Assembly (NCBI GenBank): GCA_043815815.1
Contig: JBDRIO010000006.1
Coordinates: forward strand, 24,583-88,582
Reading direction: 5' to 3'
Source: Candidatus Eiseniibacteriota bacterium
GTDB lineage: Bacteria > Joyebacterota > Joyebacteria > Joyebacterales > Joyebacteraceae
Length of the DNA: 64,000 nucleotides
Under the pieces are notes generated by a model. It saw only the letters and a program-made list of their open reading frames with translations, had not been told where the DNA came from and ran no database searches. Both the position numbers and the translations under genes were made by a program. This document shows positions 12,206 to 48,905 of this stretch, in pieces (positions within the stretch are counted from its first letter, which is position 1; each line of letters opens with the position of its first letter).

Positions 12206-12210
12206 CGCTC

Positions 12211-13230: not shown

Positions 13231-13327
13231 TCTCGCGTCCCGTTTCGCGTACTTCGTCCGGCCAACACACGGGCGTTTACGCTTGACGCGAAGGCGGCCG
13301 ACCCGATACACTTTTTGAGACCATAAT

Positions 13328-13368
13328 CCCCGACCCGGTCCCATCTTCTGAGGGGTCGGGGCTTTGTT
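13328..13368 (+). terminator. Rho-independent terminator after hflK
   Basis: 9-bp GC stem ccccgaccc / gggtcgggg with a 16-nt loop, followed by ctttgtt. Confidence 0.6.
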
Positions 13369-13605: not shown

Positions 13606-14673
13606 ATGAAAGAGGTCTTCATCGGAAGAGAGAATCTCGGGAAGCTCATAGGGAGGTGGGCCAAAGAGCACCGGGTCTACGTTCCTGTCACGTTCGAGAT
13701 AATGAACCACGAGGAGACGCCCGACTACGAACCCGTCGGCGACGTGGTTCCCGAGAACATGCATCTCGAGGGCGCGGCGCCCGCCCACGCCCCCAAGTCG
13801 TTCCTCTTCTACCCGCGTGAGGTCGTCGCGAAGTACCCGTCGAGCGACCCCGAGGCCGGGGTAGACGCGCCGCCCACGATCGTCGTGGGTCCGCGGGGCT
13901 GTGACGTGCGGGGGCTCCAGAAGTTCGACAAGGTCTACTGGAGCACGGAGCACTTCACCGAGGAGTACGACGACCCGTTCTACATCGAGAAGAGGAAGAA
14001 CACCTACATCGTCTCGGTCGACTGCACCGCCGCCAAGGAGACCTGCTTCTGCACGAAGGTCGGCGGCGGGCCTTATCCCGAGGACGGGTTCGACCTCAAC
14101 CTGGCTCCCATCGAGCCGGGTTTCGTTCTGACGGTCGGGTCCGAGAAGGGCGAGCGGCTCCTCGCCGGCAACGACGACCTCCTCATGGAGGTCCGGCAGG
14201 AGCACCAGCAGGAGCGGACGCGCAACCGCAATTCGGTCGCGGAAGCGGTGAACAGGCACAACGCCGAGTTCGAGGTCGACGCTGCGCACGACAAGTACGA
14301 CCTCGAGGGCACGCTCGAGGCGTGGATGGACGTAACGAAGAACTGCGTGGCCTGCTCGGCGTGCAACCGCACGTGCCCGACGTGCACGTGCTTCCTCCTG
14401 GTCGACCAGCGCGCGACGGGCGGCTACGAGCGGACGCGCAACTGGGACACGTGCCTGTCGATCGGCTTCGCCCGCACGGGAGGCGGCGGCAACTCGCGCG
14501 CGGCCCTCGCCGAAAGGCTCAGGAACAGGCTGCGCTGCAAGTTCGAGTACTCGCGAGACAGATACGGCCTCGTCACATGCACGGGCTGCGGCAGGTGCAT
14601 CGACGTCTGCATGGGCAGGATCGACATGAGGGAGGCCATCAAGCACGTCCTCACGGAGAATGCGAAGGCATGA
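13606..14673 (+). CDS. 4Fe-4S dicluster protein, sulfhydrogenase beta (HydB) / AsrA-like electron-transfer subunit
   Basis: 355 aa. Cys clusters NCVACSACNRTCPTCTCF and CTGCGRCIDVCMG. Confidence 0.75.
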   Translation: MKEVFIGRENLGKLIGRWAKEHRVYVPVTFEIMNHEETPDYEPVGDVVPENMHLEGAAPAHAPKSFLFYPREVVAKYPSSDPEAGVDAPPTIVVGPRGCDVRGLQKFDKVYWSTEHFTEEYDDPFYIEKRKNTYIVSVDCTAAKETCFCTKVGGGPYPEDGFDLNLAPIEPGFVLTVGSEKGERLLAGNDDLLMEVRQEHQQERTRNRNSVAEAVNRHNAEFEVDAAHDKYDLEGTLEAWMDVTKNCVACSACNRTCPTCTCFLLVDQRATGGYERTRNWDTCLSIGFARTGGGGNSRAALAERLRNRLRCKFEYSRDRYGLVTCTGCGRCIDVCMGRIDMREAIKHVLTENAKA

Positions 14674-15515
14674 AGAACCTTTACAGGCCAATCGAGAGCG
14701 TGATCGAGGACATCAAGCCCGAGACGCCGAACATCACCACCTACAGGTTCCGTCCGAAGGAGCCGGTGACGTTCGAGGCCGGGCAGTTCGTGGAGCTGAC
14801 GGTTCCCGGGGTAGGGGAGGCGCCGTTCACGCCGTCCTCGAACCCGAACGTGAAGGACACGCTCGAGATCACCATCATGCGGGTCGGGACCGTGACGGCC
14901 GCCCTCGAGAAGATGAAGGTGGGAGACACCGTGGGCCTGCGGGGCCCCTACGGAAACGGCTACAACATGGAGGACTTCTACGGCAAGGAGGTCCTCATCA
15001 TGGGCGGAGGCGTGGGACTGGCGCCTCTCCGTTCCCTCATCCTTGCGCTCTTCGACGAGATCGACAAGTTCGAGAGGATCTCGATCCGATACGGCGCCAG
15101 GACGCCCGCCGACATCGTGTACAGGGAGCTCATCCCTGAGTGGAAGAAGATGAAGAACACGGAGGTCCTCCTGACCATCGACGAGCCTCATCCGGAGTGG
15201 AGCGGAACCGTCGGCGTCGTCACCGTTCTGCTCGACGGCCTGCCGCTCCTGACGACGGTCGACGTCGAGGACCTGCCGTTCCACGCAGAGAGCGCGGTCG
15301 CCTGCGTCTGCGGGCCGCCCATCATGCTCAAGTTCGTCAACATGACGCTCCTGCAGAAGGGCTTCAAGCCGGAAAACATCTATCACTCGATGGAGCGCAA
15401 CATGAGCTGCGGTCTCGGCAAGTGCGGGCACTGCATGATGGGTGAGTACTACATCTGCAAGGACGGCCCGGTGATGACGGCGGCGCAGGTCGCGAAATTC
15501 GAAGATCCGTTCTAG
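14670..15515 (+). CDS. FAD/NAD(P)-binding oxidoreductase with C-terminal 2Fe-2S, sulfhydrogenase gamma (HydG) / AsrB / PyrK-like
   Basis: The ATG overlaps the upstream stop (ATGA). FAD-binding barrel YRFRPKEP..FEAGQFVEL, NAD(P) fold LIMGGGVGLAPL, and cluster motif SCGLGKCGHCMMG. Confidence 0.8.
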   Translation: MKNLYRPIESVIEDIKPETPNITTYRFRPKEPVTFEAGQFVELTVPGVGEAPFTPSSNPNVKDTLEITIMRVGTVTAALEKMKVGDTVGLRGPYGNGYNMEDFYGKEVLIMGGGVGLAPLRSLILALFDEIDKFERISIRYGARTPADIVYRELIPEWKKMKNTEVLLTIDEPHPEWSGTVGVVTVLLDGLPLLTTVDVEDLPFHAESAVACVCGPPIMLKFVNMTLLQKGFKPENIYHSMERNMSCGLGKCGHCMMGEYYICKDGPVMTAAQVAKFEDPF

Positions 15516-15542
15516 GGGTTCTCGCTCGAGGGGTTAGCCGAA

Positions 15543-17234
15543 ATGCCAGAGACTAAGAAGGCGTCGTGTCTCTTCTGTTCGCTCCAGTGCGGCTTCGCAA
15601 TGGAGATGGACGCGGGCGTACCTGTGCGGGTCGACTTCGACACCGAGGCGCGCCAGAACAAGGGCTCGCTGTGCGTCCGGGGACACTACAATCACGAGCT
15701 TCTGACTCATCCGAAAAGGTTCCTGGCCGCGACGGTCAACAGACGCAGGGTGCCGTGGACGAGCGGTGTGACCAAGGTCGCGGGCGGGCTCGCGGAGATC
15801 AAAGAGAGCCACGGTGGAGACGCGGTCGGCGTCATCGTCGGGACGGAGCTCTCCAACGAGGACTACGATGCGACGGCGGCGTTCGCCGCGGGCGTTCTGG
15901 GGACCGCGAACGTGGCGGTCGCCTACGACGGAAGCGACTTCCCGCTCCTGATGGGCGGGGGCGCCGGCGACGCTACGCCCGAAGACCTCGACTCGGCCGA
16001 CTGCTTCGTCCTGGTCGGCGACGTATTCTGGGGTCACCCGTGCGTGGCCAAGCGCGCGATCGCGGCGCGTCACGAGGCCAGGTCGAACCGCATCTTCACG
16101 ATCAACCCCTACCGCACGAACACAGACTGGTTCGCCGACCGCCAGATGACGGTGTCGCCCGGCGCGGAGCCCGTGGTGCTCGCCGGACTCCTGCGGGCGA
16201 TGAACGCTCAGGGCGCGCCCGACGTGTCTGTGGCGAAGGCCGCGGACGCGGCGGGGATGAGCGAGGCGGAGTTCCAGTCCATCGCCTCGAACATCCGCGA
16301 GCACCACAAGGTGGTGGTGCTCGTCTCGTCGAGGCTCGGCGACTCCGTCGCCGGCTACCTCACAGGCTCGCTGGCAGCCGCTCTCGCCCGGGCCACGGGC
16401 GGCAAGTACGGCCCGCTCTTCCGGGGCGGGAACGCCATCGGGGCCTCCGAGAGGATCGGTTCCCGGAAGACCGTCCCCGACATCCTGAAGGGCGTCGCGG
16501 GCGGCACCATCAAGGGTCTCATCGTCCTCGGTCCCGACATCCTCCAGCTCTACCCGGGCGCTCTGGGCGCGGACGACATCGAGGGGCTTTCGCTTCTCGC
16601 CGCGTCCTCAGTGTTCGAGAACGACGTCACGAAGCACAGCGACGTCGGGCTCCCTCAGACCGTGTGGACCGAGACGGAAGGGTCGTACTCGGCCTCCTTC
16701 GGCATCGCCACGTCGATGTCTCCGGTCGCCGCTCCGCAGGGCGACGCGACGTCGGTGGCCGAGATGCTCGCGAAGATCGCCTCCGGGATGGGCGCCTCTC
16801 TCGGGTCCGCGAAGGCGGTCGCCGAGCACCCGCCCGTCGAGATAGACGTTTCCGCCTCGCTCGCGAGGCTCGCAGCGCCGCCGTCAGAGGACGGCCTGCG
16901 CCTGATCGAGTGCATCAGTCCGCTTCACAGGTGGGACGGAACGATAACCGGACGCATGAGTTTCGCGCAGTCGATCTCGCCGTACTGCGACGTGTGGATC
17001 GGCGAGGAATCGGCGGCGGAGCGCGGAGTCGGACAGGGCGCGACGGTCGCGCTCTCCACCGACCGCGGAGAGACCCACATCATCGCGACCGTGACCGGCA
17101 GGATGCCGAACTCGCTCGTCGCGATACCCAGCTACGTGCCGGACGCACGCGGCCTCCTGACGTGGACCGCGAACGCCGGCACGAGGTGGTTCGATGTGTC
17201 CGCCTCCACGGCGAAGGTGACGCCGGAGGCGTAA
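15543..17234 (+). CDS. Molybdopterin-oxidoreductase family protein, FdhH/NuoG-like (short, 563 aa)
   Basis: N-terminal 4Fe-4S motif CLFCSLQCGF..SLCVRGH, an MGD-binding-like core, and a C-terminal beta-barrel domain GATVALSTDRGETHIIATVTGRMP. No Cys or in-frame TGA was seen where FdhH has Sec/Cys. Confidence 0.7.
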   Translation: MPETKKASCLFCSLQCGFAMEMDAGVPVRVDFDTEARQNKGSLCVRGHYNHELLTHPKRFLAATVNRRRVPWTSGVTKVAGGLAEIKESHGGDAVGVIVGTELSNEDYDATAAFAAGVLGTANVAVAYDGSDFPLLMGGGAGDATPEDLDSADCFVLVGDVFWGHPCVAKRAIAARHEARSNRIFTINPYRTNTDWFADRQMTVSPGAEPVVLAGLLRAMNAQGAPDVSVAKAADAAGMSEAEFQSIASNIREHHKVVVLVSSRLGDSVAGYLTGSLAAALARATGGKYGPLFRGGNAIGASERIGSRKTVPDILKGVAGGTIKGLIVLGPDILQLYPGALGADDIEGLSLLAASSVFENDVTKHSDVGLPQTVWTETEGSYSASFGIATSMSPVAAPQGDATSVAEMLAKIASGMGASLGSAKAVAEHPPVEIDVSASLARLAAPPSEDGLRLIECISPLHRWDGTITGRMSFAQSISPYCDVWIGEESAAERGVGQGATVALSTDRGETHIIATVTGRMPNSLVAIPSYVPDARGLLTWTANAGTRWFDVSASTAKVTPEA

Positions 17235-17285
17235 GGACCGGGCGGCAGCGAGAACGGGCCGCGCCGCTCATACCGGGAGATCTGG

Positions 17286-17768
17286 ATGAACAAGAGGAAC
17301 GTCCTGGACTACGGACGCTGCATCAGTTGTCGAAGCTGCATCGCGGCGTGCTTCTACTCCCACAACGACCAGGATCATCTCGAAGCCTCGTCGGTCCTGG
17401 TGAACACCGTGCTGCAGATGAACTGCAGGCACTGCGAGCAGCCGCTCTGTGAGGCGGCGTGCCCACAGGAGGCGATCAAGCGCAGGGACGACGGTCTGGT
17501 CATCCGCAGCAACGTGAAGTGCAGCGGGTGCACGTCGTGCTCGCAGGCGTGTCCGTTCGGGGCGATAGATCTCGTGAAGACGCGCCACAACATGCCGAAG
17601 TGCGACCTCTGCAGCTGGCGAACCCTCGAGGACAAGGACACGATGTGTGCGGGGACGTGTGTCTCGGGCGCCCGGACCTTCGAGGACATCGGTGACATCG
17701 ACGCTCAGAGAGGCAGACCGATGAGGGGCGGCCGCACCGTCGAGAAGACCGTGCGACGCGAGCGCTAG
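17286..17768 (+). CDS. 4Fe-4S ferredoxin-type electron-transfer subunit (HycB/DmsB-like)
   Basis: CISCRSCIAAC, CRHCEQPLCEAACP, CSGCTSCSQACP, CDLC..C..GTC. Confidence 0.85.
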   Translation: MNKRNVLDYGRCISCRSCIAACFYSHNDQDHLEASSVLVNTVLQMNCRHCEQPLCEAACPQEAIKRRDDGLVIRSNVKCSGCTSCSQACPFGAIDLVKTRHNMPKCDLCSWRTLEDKDTMCAGTCVSGARTFEDIGDIDAQRGRPMRGGRTVEKTVRRER

Positions 17769-17814
17769 ACCCTCTGTTCGTAGACTGTGCTGAGACCAAC
17801 GGAGAGGTAACAGG

Positions 17815-18753
17815 ATGGCTTCGACACTGAGCATGATTCTCTACTTCCTGATCTTCCCGGGCCTGCTCTTCACGGCGGCCGTCGGGCTACTGACGACGTG
17901 GGTGGACAGGAAGGTATCGGCGCGCGTCCAGTGGAGAGTTGGGCCGCCCTGGTATCAGCCCTTCGCTGACGTTCTGAAGCTCCTCGGGAAGGAGATCATG
18001 ATTCCCGAGGGTGCGAAGCGGACAGGGTTCCTGCTCGCCCCGCTGGCCGGCTTCGCTGCGGTGGGTGTGGTGTCGATGATGCTCTGGCTGACCAACATGA
18101 GGGGCACCGGCTTCGTGGGCGACCTGATCGGAGTCATCTACCTCCTCACGATCCCGTCCCTGGGCATGATCATCGGAGCGTCCGCCTCGTCGAATCCGCT
18201 CGCGAGCGTGGGTGCCTCCCGCGAGATGAAGCTCGTCCTGGCGTACGAACTCCCGTTCGTCATCGCCATCTTCACGGCGGTCTCCAAGATCTCGCCGATG
18301 TCGCTGAGACTCGAATCGATCCTAGCGTACCAGGACGTGAACGGCGTTCTCCTCGGCAACGCGTCCTGCATCATCGCGTTCATCGTCTGCCTCCTCTGCA
18401 TGCAAGCCAAGCTCACCTACCCTCCGTTCGACATCCCGGAGGCGGAGACCGAGCTCATGGACGGCACGCACATGGAGTACTCGGGCCCGGCTCTCGCGGT
18501 CGTCAAGGTGACGCAGGCGATGATGCTCTTCACACTTCCCGTCTTCTTCATCACCATCTTCTGGGGCGGGCTCCAGCTGACCGGTTGGGGCATCCTTTAC
18601 ACGATCGTGAAGTACGTCATCATCGTGACCGTCGCCGTGCTCATCAAGAACACGAATCCCAGGGTGAGGATCGACCAGGCCGTGCGTTTCTTCTGGGGGC
18701 CTGTGACCGTTCTCGCCATCATCGGCATGATCCTCGCGCTCGCGGGGTTCTAG
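17815..18753 (+). CDS. Membrane subunit of group-4 hydrogenase, NuoH/HycD/MbhM-like
   Basis: 312 aa polytopic protein. VDRKVSARVQWRVGPPWYQPFADVLKLLGKE is typical of the NuoH family. Confidence 0.88.
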   Translation: MASTLSMILYFLIFPGLLFTAAVGLLTTWVDRKVSARVQWRVGPPWYQPFADVLKLLGKEIMIPEGAKRTGFLLAPLAGFAAVGVVSMMLWLTNMRGTGFVGDLIGVIYLLTIPSLGMIIGASASSNPLASVGASREMKLVLAYELPFVIAIFTAVSKISPMSLRLESILAYQDVNGVLLGNASCIIAFIVCLLCMQAKLTYPPFDIPEAETELMDGTHMEYSGPALAVVKVTQAMMLFTLPVFFITIFWGGLQLTGWGILYTIVKYVIIVTVAVLIKNTNPRVRIDQAVRFFWGPVTVLAIIGMILALAGF

Positions 18754-18774
18754 GTCGAACGGAGCGAGGAACGA

Positions 18775-19188
18775 ATGGGCGCAACGAATTGGGGATTCAA
18801 GAAGTCCTTGTGGGTCTTCCACCTGAACGCGGGAGCCTGCAACAACTGCGACATTGAGGTCCTGGACTGCCTCTGTCCGAAGTACGACGTGGAGCGCTTC
18901 GGGATCAAGCTGGTGGGCAGCGTGAAGCACGCCGACGTGCTTCTCGTGTCGGGCAGCGTTCCGCGCAAGATCGTGCCGCAGGTCATAGAGACGTACGAGC
19001 AGGCGCCGAAGCCGGTCGCCGTCGTCGCTCTTGGCGCGTGCGGATGCACGGGCGGCATCTTCAAGGACGGCTACAACTTCGCGGGGCCGGTCGACAAGCA
19101 CATCCCCGTGGACGCCTACGTTCCGGGTTGTCCCCCGAGGCCCGAGGCGATCATAGACGGTATCGTCAAACTCATGGGGAAGCTCTAG
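18775..19188 (+). CDS. [NiFe]-hydrogenase small subunit, NuoB/HycG/MbhJ-like
   Basis: 137 aa. Proximal-cluster cysteines GACNNCDIE, GACGCTGG, GCPPRPEA. Confidence 0.92.
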   Translation: MGATNWGFKKSLWVFHLNAGACNNCDIEVLDCLCPKYDVERFGIKLVGSVKHADVLLVSGSVPRKIVPQVIETYEQAPKPVAVVALGACGCTGGIFKDGYNFAGPVDKHIPVDAYVPGCPPRPEAIIDGIVKLMGKL

Positions 19189-19252
19189 GAGCGAAGCCGC
19201 CCGCCCGAGAGGTCGAGGGGCGTTCGAATCCGGATACGGGAGTGACCAGACG

Positions 19253-19681
19253 ATGAGTAAGCAGGTTCTCGAGGCTCTGAAATCCAAGTTCGGCGACAGG
19301 GTCGACGTCCTGGAGCGGAACGAACGCCGGGCGTACGTCACCGTTTCGAACGAAGACTGGATCCCGGTGACCAGACACATGTACGAGGTGGCGAAGGGGA
19401 GACTGGCGACGGCGACGGGCAGCGACAGGACGACGGGAGTCGAACTCCTCTTCCACTTCGCGATCGACCGCGACGGGACGGTCGTCAACATAAGGACGAC
19501 GCTTCCGAAGCCGTTCCCCAGGATCGAGTCGCTGACCCAGTACTACCCGGCGGCCGACTTCATCGAGAGAGAGATCTACGACTTTCTAGGCGTCGAATTC
19601 ACAGGACATCCGGATCCGAGGAAGATCCTCTCCTCACACGATCGCCCCGCGGATTTCCACGCGATGAGGAGGGACGAGTAG
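19253..19681 (+). CDS. NuoC/MbhK-like hydrogenase subunit
   Basis: 142 aa. AADFIEREIYDFLGVEFTGHPD is the NuoC-family signature. Confidence 0.88.
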   Translation: MSKQVLEALKSKFGDRVDVLERNERRAYVTVSNEDWIPVTRHMYEVAKGRLATATGSDRTTGVELLFHFAIDRDGTVVNIRTTLPKPFPRIESLTQYYPAADFIEREIYDFLGVEFTGHPDPRKILSSHDRPADFHAMRRDE

Positions 19682-20854
19682 ATGAGCACGACGATTCCGA
19701 TCGGACCGTTCCATCCCGTCCTCGAGGAACCGGAGTACATCTCTCTGTACGTGGACGGCGAGACCGTGACGGGCGCCGACATAGACCTCGGGCGCGTTCA
19801 CAGAGGCATCGAGCTTCTGGCTCAGGAGAAGACGTACGACCAGGACACGTTCCTCGTCGAGAGGATCTGCGGGATCTGCTCGGCGTCTCACTGCTGGGCG
19901 TCCGTTCTGGCGATGGAGGACATCGCAGGCGTGGGTCCCTCCGACCGCGCGCGCTACCTCCGGACGATCGTCCACGAACTCGAGAGGCTGCACAGCCACA
20001 TGCTGTGGGTAGGACTCGGCGGGCACATCCTCGGGTACTGGACCGTTTTCATGTGGGGCTGGAAGTACCGCGAGCCCATCCTCGACGCGCTCGAAGCGAT
20101 CACGGGCAACCGGAACAACTACGCGTGGTACCGTCCGGGCGGCGTACGCAGGGACGTGGCCGACGAGATCTGGCCCGGGGTCCTCAAGATCCTCGACGAT
20201 TTCGACGGACAGGTCGACCTCCTGACCGGAGCCATCCTGGATGACCCCGTTATCCTGGGACGACTCAAGGGCGTGGGCATCCTGACGACGGAAGACGCCA
20301 TCAAGTACGGAGCGCTCGGCCCGACGGCGCGCGGCTCCGGTGTCGACATCGACGTCCGGCGCGACGAGCCCTACGGCGCCTACTCCGAGGTCGACTGGAA
20401 CGTCATCGTGCAGGACGGCTGCGACTGCCTCGCGGTCGCCGTGGTCCGGCTCCTCGAGATGAAGGAGTCAGTGAAGATAGTAAGGCAGTGCATCGAGAAG
20501 CTGCCGGGCGGCCCCATCGCCAACGAGATCCGCGAGATCCCCAGAGGCGAGGGCGTGGGCCACATCGAGGCGCCGAGAGGCGAGAGCTTCCACTTCATCC
20601 GCTCGAACGGCACGAACATGCCCGAGCGGCACAAGATAAGGGCGCCGACGTTCAACAACATCCCGACGTACCGGCCGCGTGTCGTGGGCGAGACGATCGC
20701 GGACGCGTGCCTCATCTTCGCCATTATCGACCCGTGCTACAGCTGCACGGAGCGAATGGCCGTTCTGGGGCCCGACGGCCGGCCGTACATGGGCGGCAAG
20801 GACCTGATCGCGCTCTCGCACGCGAAGACCGAAGCTCTCAGGAAGAGCTCCTAG
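19682..20854 (+). CDS. [NiFe]-hydrogenase large (catalytic) subunit, group 4, NuoD/HycE/MbhL-like
   Basis: N-terminal Ni-Fe motif ERICGICSASH and C-terminal motif DPCYSCTER. A 32-aa C-terminal extension follows. The start codon abuts the upstream stop. Confidence 0.93.
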   Translation: MSTTIPIGPFHPVLEEPEYISLYVDGETVTGADIDLGRVHRGIELLAQEKTYDQDTFLVERICGICSASHCWASVLAMEDIAGVGPSDRARYLRTIVHELERLHSHMLWVGLGGHILGYWTVFMWGWKYREPILDALEAITGNRNNYAWYRPGGVRRDVADEIWPGVLKILDDFDGQVDLLTGAILDDPVILGRLKGVGILTTEDAIKYGALGPTARGSGVDIDVRRDEPYGAYSEVDWNVIVQDGCDCLAVAVVRLLEMKESVKIVRQCIEKLPGGPIANEIREIPRGEGVGHIEAPRGESFHFIRSNGTNMPERHKIRAPTFNNIPTYRPRVVGETIADACLIFAIIDPCYSCTERMAVLGPDGRPYMGGKDLIALSHAKTEALRKSS

Positions 20855-20872
20855 TCCCCGGGGGTGCAAGAG

Positions 20873-22765
20873 ATGCCACAGTTGCTCGTACCGATCGTCG
20901 TACCGGCCATCGCAGGCGGCCTCTGCCTTCTCGTCCCGAGAAGGGTGAAGTTCCTGAGAGAGGCCCTGAGTTTGTTCGCGCTTACGTGGACGCTCGTGGC
21001 AACGCTCAGGCTCTTCGGGCAGTGGCCGATGTCATATGTGAAGGACTGGGTGTCGTTGGGTGGGCTGACAGTGCCGTTCGACCTCATGCTCAATCACTTC
21101 AGCGCGTTCATCATCGTGTTCGTGGCGCTGTTCGGATTGGGGATCGGTCTCTACTCGGTCTCGTGGCTCACGCGCGAGTACGACGGTCGCCGATACTACG
21201 CGTTCCTTCTCTGGACGGTCGCGGCGAGCTGCGGCGCGGTCCTCGCGAACAACCTCCTGGTGCTTCTGGTCTTCTGGGAGGCGCTGACTGCGATCCTCTT
21301 CGTCTACGTGAACACGGGGCTCAAGAAGATGGACGCCTCGGAGGGCGCATCGAAGAGCTTCATCCTGCTCGGCCTCTCGGACGCCGCGCTCTTCATCGCA
21401 GTCGCCATGATCTGGGCCAGGTTCGGCACGCTCAACATGGGCGAGCTCTCGATCTTCGTGGGCGACGGCATGACGACGACCATCTACGTCCTCATGATGA
21501 TCGGCGCCATCACGAAGGCCGGCGCGATGCCGTTCCACACGTGGATCCCAGCGGCGGCCAAGGGCGCGCCGACCCCCGTCATGGCGCTCCTGCCGGCGTC
21601 GATCGACAAGCTCCTGGGCATCTATCTCCTGGCTAGGATCAGCCTCGACATCTTCAGCGTCGGGCACGGAATGATGCTGCTGCTCATGATCATCGGCGCC
21701 GTCACGATCATCGGCGCCGTCTTGATGGCGCTCATCCAGCACGACCTGAAGGTGCTCCTCTCGTACCACGCCATCAGCCAGGTCGGGTACATGGTGCTGG
21801 GGATAGGGACCGGAGTCCCGATCGGCATCGCCGGCGGCATCTTCCACATGCTCAACCACGCGATCTACAAGGCTTGCCTCTTCCTCTGCGCGGGCTCCGT
21901 CGAGAAGCAGGCGGGAACGACGGAGATCGACAAGCTCGGCGGTCTGGCCAAGGTCATGCCGGTCACGTTCGTGACCTGCGCCATCGCGGCGTTCGCCATT
22001 TCAGGCGTTCCGCCGTTCAACGGCTTCGTCTCCAAGTGGATGGTCTACTCCGGGCTCGTCGAGCTGGGCGCCCGGGGGATGAACTACTACTGGATATTCC
22101 TGGTCGCCGCCCTCTTCGGGAGCGCCCTGACCCTCGCGTCGTTCGTCAAGGTGCTCTACTCTGCCTTCCTGGGACAGAAGCCGAGCAGGCTCGCTCAGGT
22201 CAAGGAGGCGCCCTGGGCCATGCAGGTCCCGATGATCGTCCTCGCGATCCTCTGTGTCGCCTTCGGCGTGTGGGCGAAGTTCCCGATCGAGCGGTTCATC
22301 AACCCCGTGGTGCACGGTGCTGTGACGACCGGCGCCCGCGGAGGGCTCGATCTCGGGCTGGCGGTCTGGAGCCCCGGCGCCGCCACGACGCTCATGGTGC
22401 TCGGGATCGTGTTCGGGTTCCTCGTCTTCCTGGCGAGCAGGATGTCGAAGATGCGGACCGGGCACATCTTCATCGGCGGAACGACGCCGCCTTCGAACCT
22501 CGACGCGATGCACGTGTCGGGCACGGGTTTTTACAACACGATCCGCGAGACGAAGGGCCTCTCGGGCATCTTCGCCAACGCGGAACAGCGGGTGTTCGAC
22601 GTCTACGAGCTGGGAGGACGGCTCGGGGGGGGCGTTGTCAACGGTCTCAAGATGCTGCACAACGGAGTGCTCTCGACCTATCTGGCCTGGGCGGTCATCG
22701 GACTGGGCGCCGTCGTCTTCGCGCTCCTGAGCACGCTCCTGAAGCAGCTGGTGCGGATGCAGTAG
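20873..22765 (+). CDS. Proton/sodium-translocating antiporter-like subunit, NuoL/MrpA/MbhH-family
   Basis: About 630 aa polytopic protein with the family pattern WEALTAILFVYV, PFHTWIPAAAKGAPTPVMALL, ISQVGYMVLGIG. GTG 20864 is an alternative start. Confidence 0.85.
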   Translation: MPQLLVPIVVPAIAGGLCLLVPRRVKFLREALSLFALTWTLVATLRLFGQWPMSYVKDWVSLGGLTVPFDLMLNHFSAFIIVFVALFGLGIGLYSVSWLTREYDGRRYYAFLLWTVAASCGAVLANNLLVLLVFWEALTAILFVYVNTGLKKMDASEGASKSFILLGLSDAALFIAVAMIWARFGTLNMGELSIFVGDGMTTTIYVLMMIGAITKAGAMPFHTWIPAAAKGAPTPVMALLPASIDKLLGIYLLARISLDIFSVGHGMMLLLMIIGAVTIIGAVLMALIQHDLKVLLSYHAISQVGYMVLGIGTGVPIGIAGGIFHMLNHAIYKACLFLCAGSVEKQAGTTEIDKLGGLAKVMPVTFVTCAIAAFAISGVPPFNGFVSKWMVYSGLVELGARGMNYYWIFLVAALFGSALTLASFVKVLYSAFLGQKPSRLAQVKEAPWAMQVPMIVLAILCVAFGVWAKFPIERFINPVVHGAVTTGARGGLDLGLAVWSPGAATTLMVLGIVFGFLVFLASRMSKMRTGHIFIGGTTPPSNLDAMHVSGTGFYNTIRETKGLSGIFANAEQRVFDVYELGGRLGGGVVNGLKMLHNGVLSTYLAWAVIGLGAVVFALLSTLLKQLVRMQ

Positions 22766-22889
22766 GAAGCGTTCGGGCGGGCCGCCCTGGGGCGGCCGGT
22801 CGGCGGAGCGTCGCCGGCGTTCGAACGACACGACCGACCGAAGGGTTATGCGGATTCCTTAAAGACCGGCTAGAGGCGGGAGACGCTAG

Positions 22890-23447
22890 ATGGAAAACAT
22901 CACTCCTCAACTGTACACGCTCCTGGTGTTCATGGTGATAGGTTCGATCGTCGCCATCGAGACCAGGAACCTCCTGTCGGCTGTGATCTCGGTGAGCGCC
23001 GTCGGGTTCGCGCTGTCGGTGGCCTTCCTGTTCCTGGGGGCTCCGGACATCGCGATCACGCAGCTCGTCGTGGAGATCCTGGTTCTCGTCATCCTCATCC
23101 GCGGGACGATCCTCCTCGACAACACCGCGGTCGAACTCCACCGGGACACGCTGGCGGTGATCGTCTCTCTGATCTTCTTCGGGCTGATCCTCGGGTTCGG
23201 CGCGATGATCTTCGGAAGCAAGGGCTTCCCGGAGTTCGGCGAGCCGCTCATGAGGGTGTCGAGGGTGTATGTGATGAGGGGACTCCCGGAGACTCACGCC
23301 GCGAACATCGTCACGGCGGTGATCCTCGACTTCAGGGCCTACGACACGCTGGGAGAGGCGACGGTTCTCTTCGGCTCCATCCTTGGGGCGCTTGCCATCC
23401 TCCGCAAGGACGGCAAGACGGCGAAGGGGGAGGTGGTGCCGGCATGA
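22890..23447 (+). CDS. Mrp/Mnh antiporter subunit, MrpA C-terminal / MnhB-related (DUF4040-like)
   Basis: 185 aa membrane protein with IAITQLVVEILVLVILI and NIVTAVILDFRAYDTLGEATVLF. Confidence 0.75.
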   Translation: MENITPQLYTLLVFMVIGSIVAIETRNLLSAVISVSAVGFALSVAFLFLGAPDIAITQLVVEILVLVILIRGTILLDNTAVELHRDTLAVIVSLIFFGLILGFGAMIFGSKGFPEFGEPLMRVSRVYVMRGLPETHAANIVTAVILDFRAYDTLGEATVLFGSILGALAILRKDGKTAKGEVVPA

Positions 23448-23899
23448 AGGGTCTGACTCTTATCGTAAAGACCATCACCGACTTCGTCGTCGCGTTCATC
23501 GTCATCTTCGGCGCGTACATCGTTCTCTACGGTCACCTGACGCCCGGTGGCGGGTTCGCGGGCGGCGTCATCGTCGCCTGCGCGTTCATCCTGCTCATGC
23601 TGGCCCAGGGTAAGGAGGTCGCGTTCTCGCGGCTGGGCGAGAGGACCGCACACGTGCTCGACTCGGCGGGTGCGCTCGCCTTCCTGGTGATCGGTTGGGT
23701 GGGGCTCACAGGCGGGTTCTTCTTCATGAACGTGTTCGGCAGGGGGGATCAGTTCAGACTCCTGAGTTCGGGGATGATCCTCCCCGCGAACATCGCGATA
23801 GCGTTCAAGGTGGGAACGTCGCTGTTCCTGGTGTTCTCGGCGCTCGCCGTATTCCGCAGGCGTTCCTTCAGGTCCATGATCGAGGATGAACTATCATGA
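23444..23899 (+). CDS. Mrp/Mnh antiporter subunit B-like
   Basis: ATGA overlap with the upstream gene. GHLTPGGGFAGGVIVACAFIL is typical of MnhB/MbhF. Confidence 0.8.
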   Translation: MKGLTLIVKTITDFVVAFIVIFGAYIVLYGHLTPGGGFAGGVIVACAFILLMLAQGKEVAFSRLGERTAHVLDSAGALAFLVIGWVGLTGGFFFMNVFGRGDQFRLLSSGMILPANIAIAFKVGTSLFLVFSALAVFRRRSFRSMIEDELS

Positions 23900-24243
23900 C
23901 GGTCTACTTTCTCTGCGTGGTTCTGCTCACGATGGGGCTCTACTGCCTCGTGGCGAAGAAGAACATCGTCAAGAAGATCATCGGCATAGTGATCATGGAC
24001 TACGCCGTGAACCTCTACCTCATTATCATCGGTTACAAGAACGGCGGGATCGCGCCGATCGTCGAGCCGGGGATGGGAGAGAGCACGCTGGCGCGGTTCG
24101 TCGACCCACTGCCCCAGGCGCTTGTCCTCACGTCGATCGTCATCGGGCTCGGCGTCCTGGCGCTCATGGTGTCCATGTGCATCCGGCTCTACGAGAAGCA
24201 CGGAACCTTCGACATGTCACAGATCAGCAAGCTGAGGGGATAG
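23896..24243 (+). CDS. Mrp/Mnh antiporter subunit C, NuoK-like
   Basis: 115 aa with three TM segments. ATGA overlap with the upstream gene. ALVLTSIVIGLGVLALMVSM. Confidence 0.8.
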   Translation: MTVYFLCVVLLTMGLYCLVAKKNIVKKIIGIVIMDYAVNLYLIIIGYKNGGIAPIVEPGMGESTLARFVDPLPQALVLTSIVIGLGVLALMVSMCIRLYEKHGTFDMSQISKLRG

Positions 24244-24246
24244 CCG

Positions 24247-25791
24247 ATGAACCTTGTTCCGCTGTTTGTAGCGATCCCGCTCGGTGCCGCGTTCCTCATC
24301 CCGATGCTCGGGATATGGTGGAAGAGGAGCGGCGAGGTCCTCTCGACCCTGAGCACGGCCGCGCTGGCCGTGATGGCCCTGGCGTCGATAGGGGCTCCCG
24401 CGGTCGTGCATCACATGGGCGGATGGACGGCTCCCGTTGGGATCGCGGTCGTGCAGGACGGACTGACCGTGCTCCTTCTGGTGGCCATCAACGTGATCGG
24501 ACTTCTGTGCATCATCTTCTCGCTCAAGTACATGACGGCCTACACGGGCCTCCCGAAGTACTACGGGCTCTTCATGCTCATGGTGGCGGGGATGAACGGT
24601 GTGGTCATCTCGGGAGACCTGTTCAACCTGTTCGTCTTCCTCGAGATCGCCTCGATCGCGTCGTACGCGCTCGTGGCGTTCGGTGTTGAGGCCGACGAGC
24701 TCGAGGCGGGCTTCAAGTACCTGATCCTGGGAAGCGTCGCGTCCGTCATGATCCTTTTCGCGATCGGCACCGTGTACGCGGTGACCGGGTCCCTGAACAT
24801 GGCCGACGTGGCCAGAGAGATCAGCACGAAGTGGTCGGGCGCAGAGATGAACCCGGCCCTGCTCCTCGCGGCCGCGCTCTTCCTGATGGGGTTCGCGTTG
24901 AAGGCCGCGGTCGTGCCGTTCCACGCGTGGCTTCCCGACGCGCATCCGTCGGCGCCGGCTCCCGTCTCCGCGATGCTCTCGGGCGTCGTCATCAAGAGCC
25001 TCGGCGTCTACGCCATGTGCCGCGTGTTCTTCAACGTCTTCGGGTTCTCAACCGCTTCGCCGGAGTCGGTGATCATCGCGAACTCGATGATCGCGTTCTC
25101 GGTCCTCTCGATCGTCCTTGGCGGGTTCCTGGCGATCGGACAGTGGGACTTCAAGCGCCTTCTGGCGTACAGCTCGATCGGTCAGATAGGCTACGTGACT
25201 CTCGGCCTCGGCGTCGGCGCCCGGCTCCTGGCCACCGGAGAGTCGCAGGCCCTGGCGGGTCTGGCCATCCTGGGCGGGCTCTTCCACCTCGTGAACCACG
25301 CTGCGTTCAAGTCTCTCCTCTTCCTGTCGTCGGGCGCGATACAGCACGCGACGGGGACGCGCGACATGAAGCGTCTTGGAGGGTTGAGGGAACGCATGCC
25401 CATCACGGCGGCGACGACCAATCTGGCCGCGCTCTCGATAGCCGGTGTGCCGCCGTTCAGTGGGTTCTGGAGCAAGCTCCTGATCCTCGTGGCCGTCGTC
25501 AAGGCGGGGCTCTTCGCGGTGGCCGGTGTCGCCATCGCGATGGCGTTCGTCACGCTCGTCTACTATGTGAAGGTGCAGCGCGAGATCCTGTTCGGAGAGG
25601 TCGGGAAGAGCGTGGAGCAGGCGCGGGAGGTCCCCGCGGTCATGTACATCCCGCTCATCCTCCTGGCCATTGTCTGCATCGGCTTCGGATTCGTTGCCGT
25701 CACGCAGCCCGCGATCGGTGAGCGGATGCTCGGGCCGGCCAGAGACGCTCTTCTGAACGGCGCGGAGTATGTGAAGCTGGTCCTCGGTTAG
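24247..25791 (+). CDS. Mrp/Mnh antiporter subunit D, NuoM/NuoN-like
   Basis: 514 aa. FLEIASIASYALVAF, PFHAWLPDAHPSAPAPVSAMLSGV, SSIGQIGYVTLGLG. Confidence 0.88.
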   Translation: MNLVPLFVAIPLGAAFLIPMLGIWWKRSGEVLSTLSTAALAVMALASIGAPAVVHHMGGWTAPVGIAVVQDGLTVLLLVAINVIGLLCIIFSLKYMTAYTGLPKYYGLFMLMVAGMNGVVISGDLFNLFVFLEIASIASYALVAFGVEADELEAGFKYLILGSVASVMILFAIGTVYAVTGSLNMADVAREISTKWSGAEMNPALLLAAALFLMGFALKAAVVPFHAWLPDAHPSAPAPVSAMLSGVVIKSLGVYAMCRVFFNVFGFSTASPESVIIANSMIAFSVLSIVLGGFLAIGQWDFKRLLAYSSIGQIGYVTLGLGVGARLLATGESQALAGLAILGGLFHLVNHAAFKSLLFLSSGAIQHATGTRDMKRLGGLRERMPITAATTNLAALSIAGVPPFSGFWSKLLILVAVVKAGLFAVAGVAIAMAFVTLVYYVKVQREILFGEVGKSVEQAREVPAVMYIPLILLAIVCIGFGFVAVTQPAIGERMLGPARDALLNGAEYVKLVLG

Positions 25792-25808
25792 GGAGTGGAG
25801 ACCATAAG

Positions 25809-26312
25809 ATGGAACGATTGAAACGAAGACTCCTGGATCTCGTTATCATCTTCGCCCTGTGGATGCTCCTCACGTGGTCGCTCGACGTGCAGAGCGTCAT
25901 CGCCGGGGCGGTCATCGCGATCCTCTTCGCGTTCCTGCTGTCGGGACTTCTGCCGCAGCGGGTCGAGCGGCTCTTGAGTCCGGTGCGATGGTTCTGGGCG
26001 ATCATGCACCTGATCTCCCTCTCGTTCTGGATCGTCGTGGCGAACTTCGACGTTCTCTACAGGGTGGTTCATCCGAACATGCCCATTCGTCCAGGCATCG
26101 TGAAGATCAAGACGACGCTCAAGAGCGACGAGGGCAAGGCGTTCCTCGCTAACTCGATCACGCTGACCCCGGGAACGCTGACGGTCGACATCATCGACGA
26201 CTGGCTCTACGTGCACTGGATCAACGTTCACGAGAGCCTCGAGGACACCGAGGCAATGACTCGGGATATCGCCGGACGGTTCGAAGTCACCTTGAGGAGG
26301 GTTTTCGACTGA
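25809..26312 (+). CDS. Mrp/Mnh antiporter subunit E
   Basis: 167 aa. ANSITLTPGTLTVDI is the MnhE signature. Confidence 0.8.
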   Translation: MERLKRRLLDLVIIFALWMLLTWSLDVQSVIAGAVIAILFAFLLSGLLPQRVERLLSPVRWFWAIMHLISLSFWIVVANFDVLYRVVHPNMPIRPGIVKIKTTLKSDEGKAFLANSITLTPGTLTVDIIDDWLYVHWINVHESLEDTEAMTRDIAGRFEVTLRRVFD

Positions 26313-26566
26313 TGCAGACGTTCCTGATGCTTCTGATCATAGGGACCTTCATCTGCCTCTACCGGGTGGCGAGGGGGCCGACGGCGCCCGACCGGGCAGT
26401 GGCGATCGACACGATCGGTGTGATGGTGGTGGGTATATGCGGCGTGTTCGGGGTCATCACCGGTAAGGACTACTACCTGAACGTGGCGATCGCGTGGGCG
26501 CTCCTGTCCTTCATTGGTACGCTGGCGCTTGCGAAGTACCTGGAGGGGAGGGGATTCGATGAATAG
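26312..26566 (+). CDS. Mrp/Mnh antiporter subunit F
   Basis: 84 aa. RGPTAPDRAVAIDTIG is the MnhF signature. The start overlaps the mnhE stop by 1 nt. Confidence 0.8.
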   Translation: MQTFLMLLIIGTFICLYRVARGPTAPDRAVAIDTIGVMVVGICGVFGVITGKDYYLNVAIAWALLSFIGTLALAKYLEGRGFDE

Positions 26567-26891
26567 CGGGATCGCACCGTACATCCTGATCTCGATAGGC
26601 GTGGTGTTCGACATCGTCGGCGCCATCGGTCTCATCCGGCTCCCCGACGTCTACAACAGGCTGCAGGCGGCCACCAAGTGCGTCACCCTGGGAACGTGCC
26701 TCATCCTCATCGGCGTTCTCGTTCACAGCGGGTGGAACGCGATGGGCGTCAAGGCGCTCCTGGCCGCGGTCTTCGTTCTCTGGACGTCGCCCACGGGCAG
26801 CCACGCCCTGGCGAGAGGCGCGCACATCTCCGGCGTGCCGCTCTGGCGCGGCAGCGTCGTCGACAGGTACAGGGAAGACACCGGACACTAG
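26559..26891 (+). CDS. Mrp/Mnh antiporter subunit G
   Basis: ATG 26559 lies within track ORF 26514..26891. GAIGLIRLPDVYNRLQAATK is the MnhG signature. 8-nt overlap with mnhF. Confidence 0.8.
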   Translation: MNSGIAPYILISIGVVFDIVGAIGLIRLPDVYNRLQAATKCVTLGTCLILIGVLVHSGWNAMGVKALLAAVFVLWTSPTGSHALARGAHISGVPLWRGSVVDRYREDTGH

Positions 26892-26978
26892 AGACACCGG
26901 ACACCGGATACAACGGACACCGGGTACAACGGACACCGGGTACAACGGACATCGGAGACATCGGCCACCAGAGACGGC
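26883..26978. repeat. About six tandem copies of a 16-bp unit (ggacaccgggtacaac; 8-bp sub-period nACAnCGG), spanning the mnhG stop and the following intergenic space
   Basis: Exact copies at 26915-26930 and 26931-26946, a one-mismatch copy at 26899-26914, and degenerate copies on both sides. An 8-bp-stem hairpin follows at 26972-26990. Confidence 0.85.
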
Positions 26979-27047
26979 GGGACGCCGTCTTCGAGCCCGC
27001 TCTGCAGGCGGGCGCACACGACGCATCCCCGAAGGAGAAGAGTCGCG

Positions 27048-27653
27048 ATGAAGAAACCGAAGCTTCGGGAGCTCAAGGAAGCACTCACGGCGGTCGTGAA
27101 GGGTCCGTACACGAGTACGTTCCCGTTCACCCCGCTCGAGCCAGCCGAGGCCTTCCGCGGGCAGCCCCTCTACAGCGAAGAGGACTGCATCGGCTGCGGC
27201 GCGTGCGCCGAAGTGTGTCCGGCGCGGACGATCGACGTGATAGACGAGGGGAACACCCGGACGCTCATACACCACTTCGACAACTGCATCTACTGCGGGC
27301 AGTGCGAGGCGCTCTGCACGACGAAGAAGGGGATCCAGCTCTCCCACAACTACGCGCTTGCCGTGTTCGACCGCGCGCAGGCCGTCACCACCGTGGAGAA
27401 GGAGCTGGTCCGCTGCGAGCACTGCGGGGACATCATCACGGCTCGCGAGCACCTCGAGTGGATCGCCAGAAAGACAGGCTCGCTCGCAGTCGCTAACCCT
27501 ACGCTCATGGTGACGCTCCACCAGCGGTTCGGGGCGACGCAGGACCCGACGGCGCGTCCCGAGGAGAAACCCATCGGTCGCCACGACTCCTATCTCGTGA
27601 TGTGTCCGGCCTGCAGGCGCGAGGTCTACCTGACGGAGGACTGGCTGGGCTAG
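27048..27653 (+). CDS. 2x[4Fe-4S] ferredoxin subunit of group-4 hydrogenase, NuoI/HycF/MbhN-like
   Basis: CIGCGACAEVCP and CIYCGQCEALC. RBS GAAGGAG. Last gene of the cluster. Confidence 0.85.
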   Translation: MKKPKLRELKEALTAVVKGPYTSTFPFTPLEPAEAFRGQPLYSEEDCIGCGACAEVCPARTIDVIDEGNTRTLIHHFDNCIYCGQCEALCTTKKGIQLSHNYALAVFDRAQAVTTVEKELVRCEHCGDIITAREHLEWIARKTGSLAVANPTLMVTLHQRFGATQDPTARPEEKPIGRHDSYLVMCPACRREVYLTEDWLG

Positions 27654-27724
27654 GCGGGAGCGCCGCGGGCGTGTGGTCGGCCACAAGCCCTCCATTCGCG
27701 GATTCGGCGCCGGCATTCGGACTG

Positions 27725-27757
27725 GAACGGGCCCCCCGAGGGCCCGTTCTCCTTTTG
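27725..27757 (+). terminator. Rho-independent terminator closing the hydrogenase/Mrp cluster
   Basis: 10-bp stem gaacgggccc / gggcccgttc with a 5-nt loop, followed by tccttttg. Confidence 0.75.
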
Positions 27758-28003
27758 AGGGGGCCTCACACAAGCTGTTGCGTTTGGCATACGCGCCGTG
27801 GCACTCTCCGGAGCGTCCGATTCGAGCGGGGCTCGGGCGCTGCGACGAGCCCCTTGTCCGGCCACACGCGACATCGAGACACGAAAGGACGACGGCCCCT
27901 GGGAGGAGGTGACGCTGCAGGGGTTACGCTCGCGTTCCGGCCCGCTGGTCACGGGCCGCCCGCTGCCGACATGGAGGCTGGCTTCTACACAAGGAGCGAA
28001 GTG

Positions 28004-48350: not shown

Positions 48351-48905
48351 ATGCGGGCGCGAAGGCCGCCGGGGTCCGGCGGCCGGACGCTGTTCCGGCC
48401 CCGCACGTGTCATGACGGAGGACGAGCCATCGCCGATCTGCACGACATATCCCGTGGCCGCGTCGTCGTGCTGGGCGTCGGTAACGCGCTCAGGGCGGAC
48501 GACGGCGCAGGGCCTGCCGTCGCTGAGCTCCTGCGGCCGAGGTTCCCCGACCGCGTGTTCGACGGGGGGCAGGCTCCCGAGAACTTCACGGGGCCCATGA
48601 GGCGGGCCGATCCGGACACGGTGCTCATAGTCGACGCGGCCGACTTCGGCGGCGAGGCGGGGGAGATTCGAGTGGCCGACGCGGACGACGTGGGCGGGCT
48701 CATGACGGGCACGCACGCGCCCCCGCTCTCGATGTTCATGCGGCTCCTGTCAGAGGACACCGGCGCGAACGTGTACCTCTTGGCGATACAGGTCGAATCG
48801 ATGGAACTCGGCGGCGCGATGAGCCCTCGGGTCAGAGAGGCCGTGGAGGGCCTGTCGTCTGAGATGGCATCACTTCTGGAGGGCGGTGACCCCAGGGTGG
48901 AGTGA
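48351..48905 (+). CDS. [NiFe]-hydrogenase maturation endopeptidase (HycI/HybD family)
   Basis: This is the 3' part of track ORF 47067..48905. VVVLGVGNALRADDGAG, VLIVDAADFGGEAGEI, GTHAPPL. The start is uncertain: ATG 48351 gives an unusually long N-terminus, and GTG 48468 gives a HycI-like MLGVGN. Confidence 0.8.
   Translation: MRARRPPGSGGRTLFRPRTCHDGGRAIADLHDISRGRVVVLGVGNALRADDGAGPAVAELLRPRFPDRVFDGGQAPENFTGPMRRADPDTVLIVDAADFGGEAGEIRVADADDVGGLMTGTHAPPLSMFMRLLSEDTGANVYLLAIQVESMELGGAMSPRVREAVEGLSSEMASLLEGGDPRVE

Follow-up and report, generated by a model that had tools for sequence, protein, structure and literature searches.

Two described gene sets stand close to the locus reported here. Glass et al. 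(2021; bioRxiv 10.1101/536078; Environ Microbiol) gave the name Hun (hunA-P) to a 16-subunit operon of Atribacteria, Firmicutes, Omnitrophica, Elusimicrobia, Bacteroidetes and Kosmotoga, in which an optional 4Fe-4S molybdopterin-domain protein is encoded between HunB and HunC; its large subunit, HunG, carries the metal-site motifs CGIC ... CYCC and is put by HydDB in group 4g, “ferredoxin-coupled (putative)”, although it is separate from the other 4g sequences. Mrp-linked hydrogenases of Omnitrophota are also called 4g in the literature. The second set is a cluster of Saganbacteria RX5A, reported as an “enigmatic group 4 hydrogenase” (Matheus Carnevali et al. 2019; PMC6349859), which contains a molybdopterin protein that was not classifiable as a formate dehydrogenase and has its closest relatives in Zixibacteria and Omnitrophica. 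Literature searches for later or biochemical work on Hun, or on the hydrogenases of Kosmotoga or Eisenbacteria, found none. The present locus is a 17-gene hydrogenase cluster of a Candidatus Eiseniibacteriota bacterium (assembly GCA_043815815.1, contig JBDRIO010000006.1, positions 24,583-88,582 of the forward strand); this stretch of 64,000 nt is called the window, and all positions below are counted within it.

A sequence-only reading of the window had described the cluster as a group-4 [NiFe] hydrogenase joined to an Mrp antiporter, to FdhH-like and HycB-like subunits and to a HydB/HydG-like NAD(P) module, a combination that it did not recognise as a described complex. This last claim was dropped, because the gene set is already in the literature under both of the names given above, each time with an optional molybdopterin protein; a subgroup with the same gene complement thus exists, but it is not well characterised. 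By its gene content the cluster is a Hun-type operon, and what is new is a deep-branching, probably Eisenbacteria-type member that has a full-length molybdopterin-like subunit. The reading that we favour, and which we hold to be rather likely, is that of a membrane-bound, Mrp-linked group-4 [NiFe] hydrogenase, with a peripheral arm extended by a flavo-iron-sulfur module made of HunA and HunB, and with a molybdopterin-like subunit that is probably no working formate dehydrogenase.

Gene content and distribution of the cluster

The 17 genes lie on the plus strand between 13606 and 27653, co-directional and closely packed, as had been noted at first sight, and they comprise the 16 Hun genes in the published order together with the optional molybdopterin gene (Table 1). 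The hmmscan that had been proposed earlier gave a Pfam match for each of the 17 proteins, all of them strongly assigned. Start and stop codons overlap at the four junctions already reported (14670, 23444, 23896 and 26312) and at a fifth, 26559 (26559-26566); the hunA/hunB overlap reads ATGA, and several genes are spaced by 28-66 nt. For hunO the ATG at 26559 is a better start than the TTG at 26514, orthologues being called at 108-113 aa. Among ten proteins scanned against NCBIfam no equivalog cut-off was reached and only a generic NuoB subfamily model passes, for the small subunit, so that the complex has no curated family name.

The translation of HunG contains both CxxC ligand pairs, in RICGICSASH (L1) and DPCYSCTER (L2), and that of HunE the cluster cysteines in GACNNC, GACGC and GCPPRP; the ligand residues of HunG are invariant in the alignment of large-subunit relatives. 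The closest solved structures to HunG are those of Pyrococcus furiosus MbhL (6cfw_L, 4e-74) and Escherichia coli HycE (7z0s_E, 1e-70), while the resemblance to group 3 is weak and limited to the N-terminal part. These features agree with the earlier view of a genuine catalytic pair and support the conclusion that the cluster encodes a genuine group-4 [NiFe] hydrogenase. Likewise, the Mrp set is complete, with eight Mrp-like genes that include two Proton_antipo_M subunits, and the membrane subunits are ten in all; the HycB-like label of HunC also holds, its best PDB matches being HycB3 of the hydrogen-dependent CO2 reductase (HDCR; 8.8e-17) and HycB of E. coli formate hydrogenlyase (FHL; 6.4e-12).

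Large-subunit relatives are numerous: 7889 were found at E<=1e-30, one clade with 77-94% identity and the remainder with about 55-62%, and a relative is encoded in at least 595 species genomes (one genome per species scanned). Synteny was counted in 86 loci, 65 of which have enough upstream sequence, with 57 as the denominator for the Mrp genes. The order is identical in the first six loci (L001-L006) and in most of the others (L007-L086), and it was found in Omnitrophota, Planctomycetota, Margulisiibacteriota, Bacteroidales and other lineages; with dozens of unrelated genomes sharing this gene order, the arrangement is not due to chance. In three close relatives (L001-L003) all 17 genes recur within different flanks, the Omnitrophota and Planctomycetota loci (L004 and L005) have the unit without the molybdopterin-like gene, and the Margulisiibacteriota locus (L006) has a shorter version of this gene. 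Every one of the 65 loci has AsrA-, AsrB- and HycB-like genes 5′ of the hydrogenase, and in 53/57 the full set of eight Mrp genes lies downstream of it, whereas only 13 of the 65 encode the molybdopterin-like protein; the expectation that the first three genes are conserved together with the hydrogenase is thus borne out for genes 1 and 2 and fails for gene 3.

A neighbour-joining tree, built with Hun relatives only and midpoint-rooted, places the window in a tight clade with L001, L002 and L007-L012, which branches deeply as sister to the remaining Hun sequences of the sample. Where members of this clade, or of the corresponding molybdopterin-like protein family, have a name, it is Candidatus Eisenbacteria, a phylum that the NCBI listing has among the candidate phyla. 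The phylum is placed in the FCB group, and the FCB-like host that had been suggested is reasonable: the window also encodes a C-terminal sorting domain of the type IX secretion system (Por_Secre_tail; 50880-52538, minus strand) and two large C25 (gingipain-family) peptidases (57577-61329 and 62335-63999, plus strand), which fit such a host.

Some variants of the architecture were also observed. In a Spirochaetota locus (L040, 5593-11800) and in another locus (L047, 2334-8400), Hun-like operons with AsrA, AsrB, HycB, NuoH/B/C-like, large-subunit and HunP-like genes have no Mrp-like genes, and in the latter no Mrp match was found in the 10 kb 3′ of the large subunit; on this gene content they would be an Mrp-less variant of a hydrogenase with the NAD(P) module. 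The Margulisiibacteriota locus has a 225-aa insert with no Pfam match between hunC and hunD (L006, 7507-8184), and the Omnitrophota one a PhoU-domain gene between hunO and hunP (L004, 16994-17596). In one large-subunit homologue of the window's clade (P0042, 474 aa), the NuoC-like protein and the large subunit are fused (Complex1_30kDa and Complex1_49kDa), similarly to E. coli NuoCD and HycE.

HunA, HunB and the electron donor

The first two proteins of the operon had been named HydB/HydG-like, and indeed their closest solved relatives are the beta and gamma subunits of Pyrococcus sulfhydrogenase I (SHI; Table 1). The NCBIfam HydB/HydG/ShyB/ShyC matches of the pair are below the equivalog cut-offs, and those of HunA (ShyB/HydB/AsrA) are all under cut-off. 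HunB has the motif GEAPFTPSS for the flavin, GGGVGLAP and CGPPIM for the nucleotide and SCGxGKCGHC...CKDGPV for the 2Fe-2S cluster, and the conservation of these motifs is at least 90% over 68 orthologues that span many phyla. Since these motifs are kept and the nearest solved relative is the NADPH-binding SHI gamma subunit, coupling to NAD(P)H through HunB, against the published ferredoxin proposal, is plausible; moreover, enzymes of the membrane-bound hydrogenase (MBH) type take ferredoxin without a flavoprotein, and the universal retention of HunAB would thus favour a pyridine-nucleotide site over the entry of electrons from ferredoxin. Among the features of group 3b, the cluster has the beta/gamma diaphorase pair and lacks the group-3 alpha/delta subunits and the solubility.

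In the published model reduced ferredoxin would deliver electrons to HunA, HunB and HunC and then to the NiFe site, with release of H2, and the Mrp module would build up a gradient of Na+ like that of Pyrococcus MBH; for the NAD(P) site of HunB this would leave a vestigial or regulatory role, or that of a side branch through which NAD(P)H and ferredoxin might be used jointly. The proposal of Glass et al. (10.1101/536078) agrees with the HydDB class of HunG, 4g “ferredoxin-coupled (putative)”, and the exergonic reaction from ferredoxin to H2 is a natural power source for ion pumping; however, MBH takes its ferredoxin electrons without a flavoprotein, and yet a full FAD/NAD(P)/2Fe-2S subunit with conserved motifs is encoded in every one of the 65 operons. 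HunC and HunP are polyferredoxins of the types that accept from ferredoxin in the MBH and FHL relatives, and carriers such as Omnitrophota also encode Rnf, but the nearest characterised relative of HunB is the NADPH-binding subunit of SHI, and the premise that AsrAB accept electrons from ferredoxin is not itself established. The Asr enzyme of Salmonella is described as NADH-linked, which counts against this premise. All in all, a ferredoxin-driven enzyme appears unlikely, even if it keeps an appreciable chance of being the right answer.

The molybdopterin-like subunit

The optional third gene codes for a protein that comes closest to formate dehydrogenases in sequence and fold: its best profile match in the PDB is FdhF of HDCR (2.7e-37), and Foldseek puts E. 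coli FdhH on top (1fdi, 1e-22, TM 0.59), including the chain of the FHL complex, with NuoG (8e9g_G) also matched. A link to the Mrp-linked formate respiration of Thermococcus had been seen in it; in such an enzyme the FdhH-like subunit would oxidise formate and pass the electrons through HunC on to the hydrogenase, a scheme known from E. coli FHL and from the Thermococcus Fdh-Mfh-Mnh system. HunAB would then be an extra NAD(P) outlet. The gene is directly 5′ of the HycB-like gene, as for FdhF partners, and the N-terminal 4Fe-4S cysteines (C9, C12, C16 and C44) and the FDH-type arginine R294 are invariant in the family. The catalytic Cys/Sec-His pair, on the other hand, is not kept in the alignment with formate dehydrogenase and nitrate-reductase references and with PDB profiles, and the formate-coupled reading was rejected on this ground: where the Cys/Sec ligand is expected the family varies between S, N and C, and an invariant Asp takes the place of the catalytic His next to it.

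Several other comparisons point in the same direction. The NCBIfam Fdh-alpha model scores 119 bits vs a cut-off of 666, the NuoG and QrcB models being also matched, and identity drops from at least 55% within the family to 22-26% with real formate dehydrogenases or nitrate reductases. With 563 aa, the protein is shorter than the matched formate dehydrogenases (674-743 aa; 715 aa for E. coli FdhH), and within the clade its conservation is the lowest of all 17 proteins (61-79% vs 71-98% for the others); in other clades it is shortened to 379-498 aa with loss of the C-terminal domain, and the Margulisiibacteriota versions are 24-29% identical to that of the window. Since the Cys/Sec-His pair is missing, the subunit is the least conserved one and its gene is absent from 52 of 65 otherwise identical operons, formate coupling is not supported, and a formate-respiring enzyme is to be regarded as very improbable; Matheus Carnevali et al. 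(PMC6349859) were likewise unable to classify their version as a formate dehydrogenase. With the FHL and Mrp-linked formate-respiring enzymes (groups 4a and 4b) the cluster shares a HycB/F/G/E-like peripheral arm (7z0s chains B, E and F), whereas of a competent formate dehydrogenase subunit only the Arg is kept. Thus, a canonical formate dehydrogenase is unlikely, and by analogy with NuoG and QrcB the subunit is most likely a cofactor-poor, FeS-carrying scaffold or electron wire derived from a FdhF/FdhH-type protein; the NAD(P) link, which is plausible, is the more interesting question.

A division of the cluster into two neighbouring enzymes, with genes 1-3 or 1-4 coding for a soluble AsrAB-like/molybdopterin oxidoreductase and genes 5-17 for a standard ferredoxin-dependent hydrogenase of the Mrp-Mbh kind, would be in keeping with the 28-66 nt gaps and with a single complex being known here from genes alone, but it is hardly credible, because genes 1, 2 and 4 precede the hydrogenase in all 65 loci, across at least ten phylum-level groups with differing outer flanks (gyrase, Band-7, kinases, hyp genes), neither AsrC nor subunits of a group-3 hydrogenase are encoded in the cluster as a catalytic partner of AsrAB, and hunP, which the hydrogenase needs, is at the far 3′ end, so that the unit behaves as one block.

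Proposed mechanism

The favoured reading, a membrane-bound group-4 hydrogenase with a HunA/HunB module, builds on gene content, motifs, homologies and synteny, and a route for the electrons can be drawn from it, in which the donor, the direction, the coupling to ions and what the molybdopterin-like subunit does are all conditional. Electrons from NAD(P)H would enter at the FAD and the 2Fe-2S cluster of HunB and pass to the 4Fe-4S clusters of HunA; in the clade of the window they would then reach the single 4Fe-4S cluster of the molybdopterin-like subunit and, from there, the four clusters of HunC. HunC would pass them to HunP (HycF/NuoI-like), to HunE (NuoB-like) and finally to the NiFe site of HunG, where protons would be reduced to H2, and turnover would be coupled to H+ or Na+ movement through HunD and the eight Mrp-like subunits. 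As the NAD(P)H/H2 couple is near equilibrium, the ion gradient might be spent to push H2 evolution from NAD(P)H, or a small amount of energy might be conserved at very low H2; in a third option, the complex may work in the other direction and conserve energy as an H2:NAD(P)+ oxidoreductase.

In a bolder form of this reading, which we put forward tentatively and with some doubt, Hun would be an NAD(P)H:proton oxidoreductase with ion translocation, a “hydrogenase version of complex I” with a head unrelated to NuoEF, and the Eisenbacteria-type clade would have independently recruited a degenerate FDH-like subunit at the NuoG position. If so, something equivalent to an N-module would have been reached in parallel, and ferredoxin-independent interconversion of NAD(P)H, H2 and ion gradients would be widespread among the anaerobes of sediments.

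A number of points weigh against the NAD(P)H-linked enzyme and against a subunit devoid of molybdenum chemistry. The formation of H2 from NAD(P)H is endergonic at standard conditions (E0′ of about -320 vs -414 mV), and an ion-pumping hydrogenase driven by NAD(P)H works only at low H2 or in reverse. In some molybdenum enzymes, of which arsenite oxidase is one, the metal is not bound by any residue of the protein. The molybdopterin-like subunit keeps R294 (in RGGN) and many invariant residues in domains that normally hold pterins, and that it retains its cofactor with some other chemistry is a prospect to be reckoned with; the AlphaFold2 model of this protein is of moderate quality, with a pLDDT of 64 and with the N-terminal FeS domain unmodelled, and it was used for fold-level assignment only. 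The specificity for NAD or NADP is not readable from the HunB sequence, and co-transcription of the hun genes is something we infer from gene spacing only. The L2 motif of HunG is CYSC instead of the CYCC given by Glass et al., whereas L1 is CGIC as published; among 86 operons of the same architecture, however, 57 have CYCC and 29 CYSC, with the CYSC clades nested among the CYCC ones, so that CYCC is common in this architecture, not universal to it. Both Ni-ligand cysteines are present in the HunG of the window, and the Omnitrophota/Bacteroidales relatives, at 55-61% identity, carry CYCC. Lastly, the sole published functional proposal for Hun has ferredoxin as the donor (Glass et al. 2021, 10.1101/536078).

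Boundaries, maturation and neighbouring genes

Terminators had been placed at 13328 and 27725, on the two sides of the operon. Hairpins are present at both edges (Table 1), but neither was flagged by a generic promoter/terminator scan, whose numbers were no better than those of shuffles, and the z values are only -1.5 and -1.8; as operon terminators they are plausible, rather than demonstrated, the assignment coming from direct reading of the sequence and folding only. In the two longer internal gaps, 22766-22889 and 26892-27047, the scan and folding gave no terminator-like site. A tandem repeat at 26876-26975 (unit of about 16 nt, AGACACCGGACACCAG, about six copies, 85% matches) spans the hunO stop codon and extends into the 156-nt gap 5′ of hunP.

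HunG has a 32-residue C-terminal extension past DPCYSCTER, of the type removed by HycI-type proteases, and a candidate endopeptidase is encoded about 20 kb downstream, unlinked to the operon (Table 1). Its domain is the C-terminal end of an over-long open reading frame (ORF) of 612 aa (47067-48905), the 5′ part of which overlaps a better minus-strand ORF (47448-48248) and is probably non-coding. In the Omnitrophota and Margulisiibacteriota loci (L004 and L006) HycI is directly 3′ of hunP. No hyp genes adjoin the cluster and none were found among the window proteins scanned, where the distant HycI is the only maturation protein.

The window opens with dnaA, dnaN, recF, a DciA-family gene, gyrB and gyrA (13-9494), which puts the hun operon about 13 kb from a probable replication origin region. 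A cation-efflux/Band-7 fusion protein and then Band-7 (SPFH) genes (9571-13286) are directly 5′ of the operon; they are found also in L002 (1-3535) and L003, while in L001 gyrB/gyrA are directly 5′ of it, and the window has both sets in series. On the other side, two adjacent paralogues of about 1100 aa (32541-35861 and 35908-39105) each combine numerous TPR repeats with a CHAT (caspase-like) domain at the C-terminus.

Table 1. Genes of the Hun-type operon and associated features, with positions in the window
Feature	Position	Strand	Description	Evidence
hunA	13606..14673	+	AsrA / sulfhydrogenase-beta-like iron-sulfur protein, 355 aa	Pfam Fer4_22 1e-23; PDB 9nez_B 1e-39 over residues 4-348
hunB	14670..15515	+	AsrB / sulfhydrogenase-gamma-like flavoprotein, 281 aa	FAD_binding_6, NAD_binding_1, DHODB_Fe-S_bind; PDB 9nez_C 6.5e-51
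Molybdopterin-like gene	15543..17234	+	Molybdopterin-oxidoreductase-like subunit, optional, 563 aa	Molybdop_Fe4S4, Molybdopterin, Molydop_binding, all weak (1e-11 to 3e-7)
hunC	17286..17768	+	HycB/CooF-like polyferredoxin, 160 aa, 16 Cys in four cluster motifs	Pfam Fer4_11 1e-17; Cys motifs from translation
hunD	17815..18753	+	NuoH/HycD/MbhM-like membrane anchor, 312 aa	Pfam NADHdh 6.8e-64
hunE	18775..19188	+	NuoB-like hydrogenase small subunit, 137 aa	Pfam Oxidored_q6 1.2e-30
hunF	19253..19681	+	NuoC-like, 142 aa	Pfam Complex1_30kDa 7.9e-22
hunG	19682..20854	+	Group-4 [NiFe] large subunit, 390 aa	Complex1_49kDa 4e-70, NiFeSe_Hases 7e-16
hunH	20864..22765	+	MrpA-N/NuoL-like antiporter subunit, 633 aa	Pfam Proton_antipo_M 1e-58
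hunI	22890..23447	+	MbhD+MbhE-like (MrpA C-terminal part), 185 aa	Pfam MbhD 6e-17, MbhE 6e-9
hunJ	23444..23899	+	MrpB/MnhB-like, 151 aa	Pfam MnhB 1e-23
hunK	23896..24243	+	MrpC/NuoK-like, 115 aa	Pfam Oxidored_q2 2e-25
hunL	24247..25791	+	MrpD/NuoM/N-like second antiporter subunit, 514 aa	Pfam Proton_antipo_M 9e-65
hunM	25809..26312	+	MrpE-like, 167 aa	Pfam MNHE 1e-37
hunN	26312..26566	+	MrpF-like, 84 aa	Pfam MrpF_PhaF 3e-20
hunO	26559..26891	+	MrpG-like, 110 aa from ATG 26559	Pfam PhaG_MnhG_YufB 2e-27
hunP	27048..27653	+	HycF/NuoI-like 2x[4Fe-4S], 201 aa	Pfam Fer4 families; PDB HycF 7z0s_F 6.6e-18, MbhN 1.2e-13
Upstream hairpin	13328..13362	+	Possible upstream-edge terminator, 3′ of Band-7 genes	9-bp stem CCCCGACCC/GGGTCGGGG, -20.1 kcal/mol, z -1.5
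Downstream hairpin	27724..27758 (hairpin ~27724-27748)	+	Hairpin with U-rich tail, candidate intrinsic terminator	11-bp G+C stem then UCUCCUUUUG, -24.5 to -26.7 kcal/mol, z -1.8
HycI-type gene	48351..48905	+	Maturation endopeptidase, candidate processor of the HunG extension; start codon uncertain	Pfam HycI 5.9e-16

Significance and comparison with known systems

Hun-type operons are very common in uncultured anaerobes, and in metabolic reconstructions they are routinely entered under group 4g, as producers of H2 that depend on ferredoxin. Should the conserved SHI-gamma-like subunit couple NAD(P)H to the membrane hydrogenase, these models would have to be revised, with consequences for H2 thresholds, for the energy that fermenters gain and for the direction in which H2 flows in sediments. 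The locus of the window would also be a useful construct to ask whether the molybdopterin-like subunit is catalytic or a NuoG-like relic.

The HunA/HunB module has its closest solved counterpart in the beta and gamma subunits of P. furiosus SHI (group 3b; 9NEZ/9NF0), where gamma holds the FAD and the NADP(H) site; SHI, however, is soluble and has a group-3 alpha/delta dimer, whereas the module of the window sits with a membrane-bound group-4 enzyme. NuoG and QrcB, which belong to the molybdopterin family but have no cofactor, share with the molybdopterin-like subunit a molybdopterin-oxidoreductase fold without the catalytic ligand, and NuoG also shares its position between a nucleotide-binding flavoprotein and the ferredoxin chain; the window subunit, however, is much closer to FdhF/FdhH than to NuoG, stands alone with a single N-terminal 4Fe-4S domain and may still hold the cofactor. 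The complex is distinct from complex I, with no NuoE/NuoF genes and with both CxxC NiFe motifs kept in HunG.

E. coli FHL (group 4a; 7Z0S/7Z0T) provides the second-best solved relative of HunG (HycE), the best one of HunP (HycF), a good one of HunC (HycB) and the best fold match of the molybdopterin-like subunit (FdhH); it differs in its catalytic Sec-His FdhH, and in having neither an Mrp E/F/G set nor an NAD(P) flavoprotein. P. furiosus MBH (group 4d; 6CFW) gives the best solved match of the large subunit and has an Mrp-derived membrane arm with a NuoB/C/D/H/I-like core, but its 14 subunits (MbhA-N) include a single antiporter-like one and no flavoprotein, HycB-like or molybdopterin-like subunit, and its donor is ferredoxin; the window, instead, encodes two Proton_antipo_M subunits together with HunA/B, HunC and the molybdopterin-like protein.

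Nearer still is the Saganbacteria RX5A cluster (PMC6349859), with a hydrogenase, Mrp-like genes, an unclassifiable molybdopterin oxidoreductase and cooF-, asrA- and asrB-like genes; it belongs to another phylum, and the Margulisiibacteriota molybdopterin-like protein is shorter. Hun itself (Glass et al. 2021) has the same 16 subunit types in the same order, with HunAB first and HunP last, the same CGIC in L1, and Omnitrophica and Bacteroidetes among its carriers; the window differs from it by the CYSC of L2, by its place in a deep sister clade, probably of Candidatus Eisenbacteria, whose large subunit is 55-61% identical to the others, and by a donor that is read here as NAD(P)H rather than as ferredoxin.

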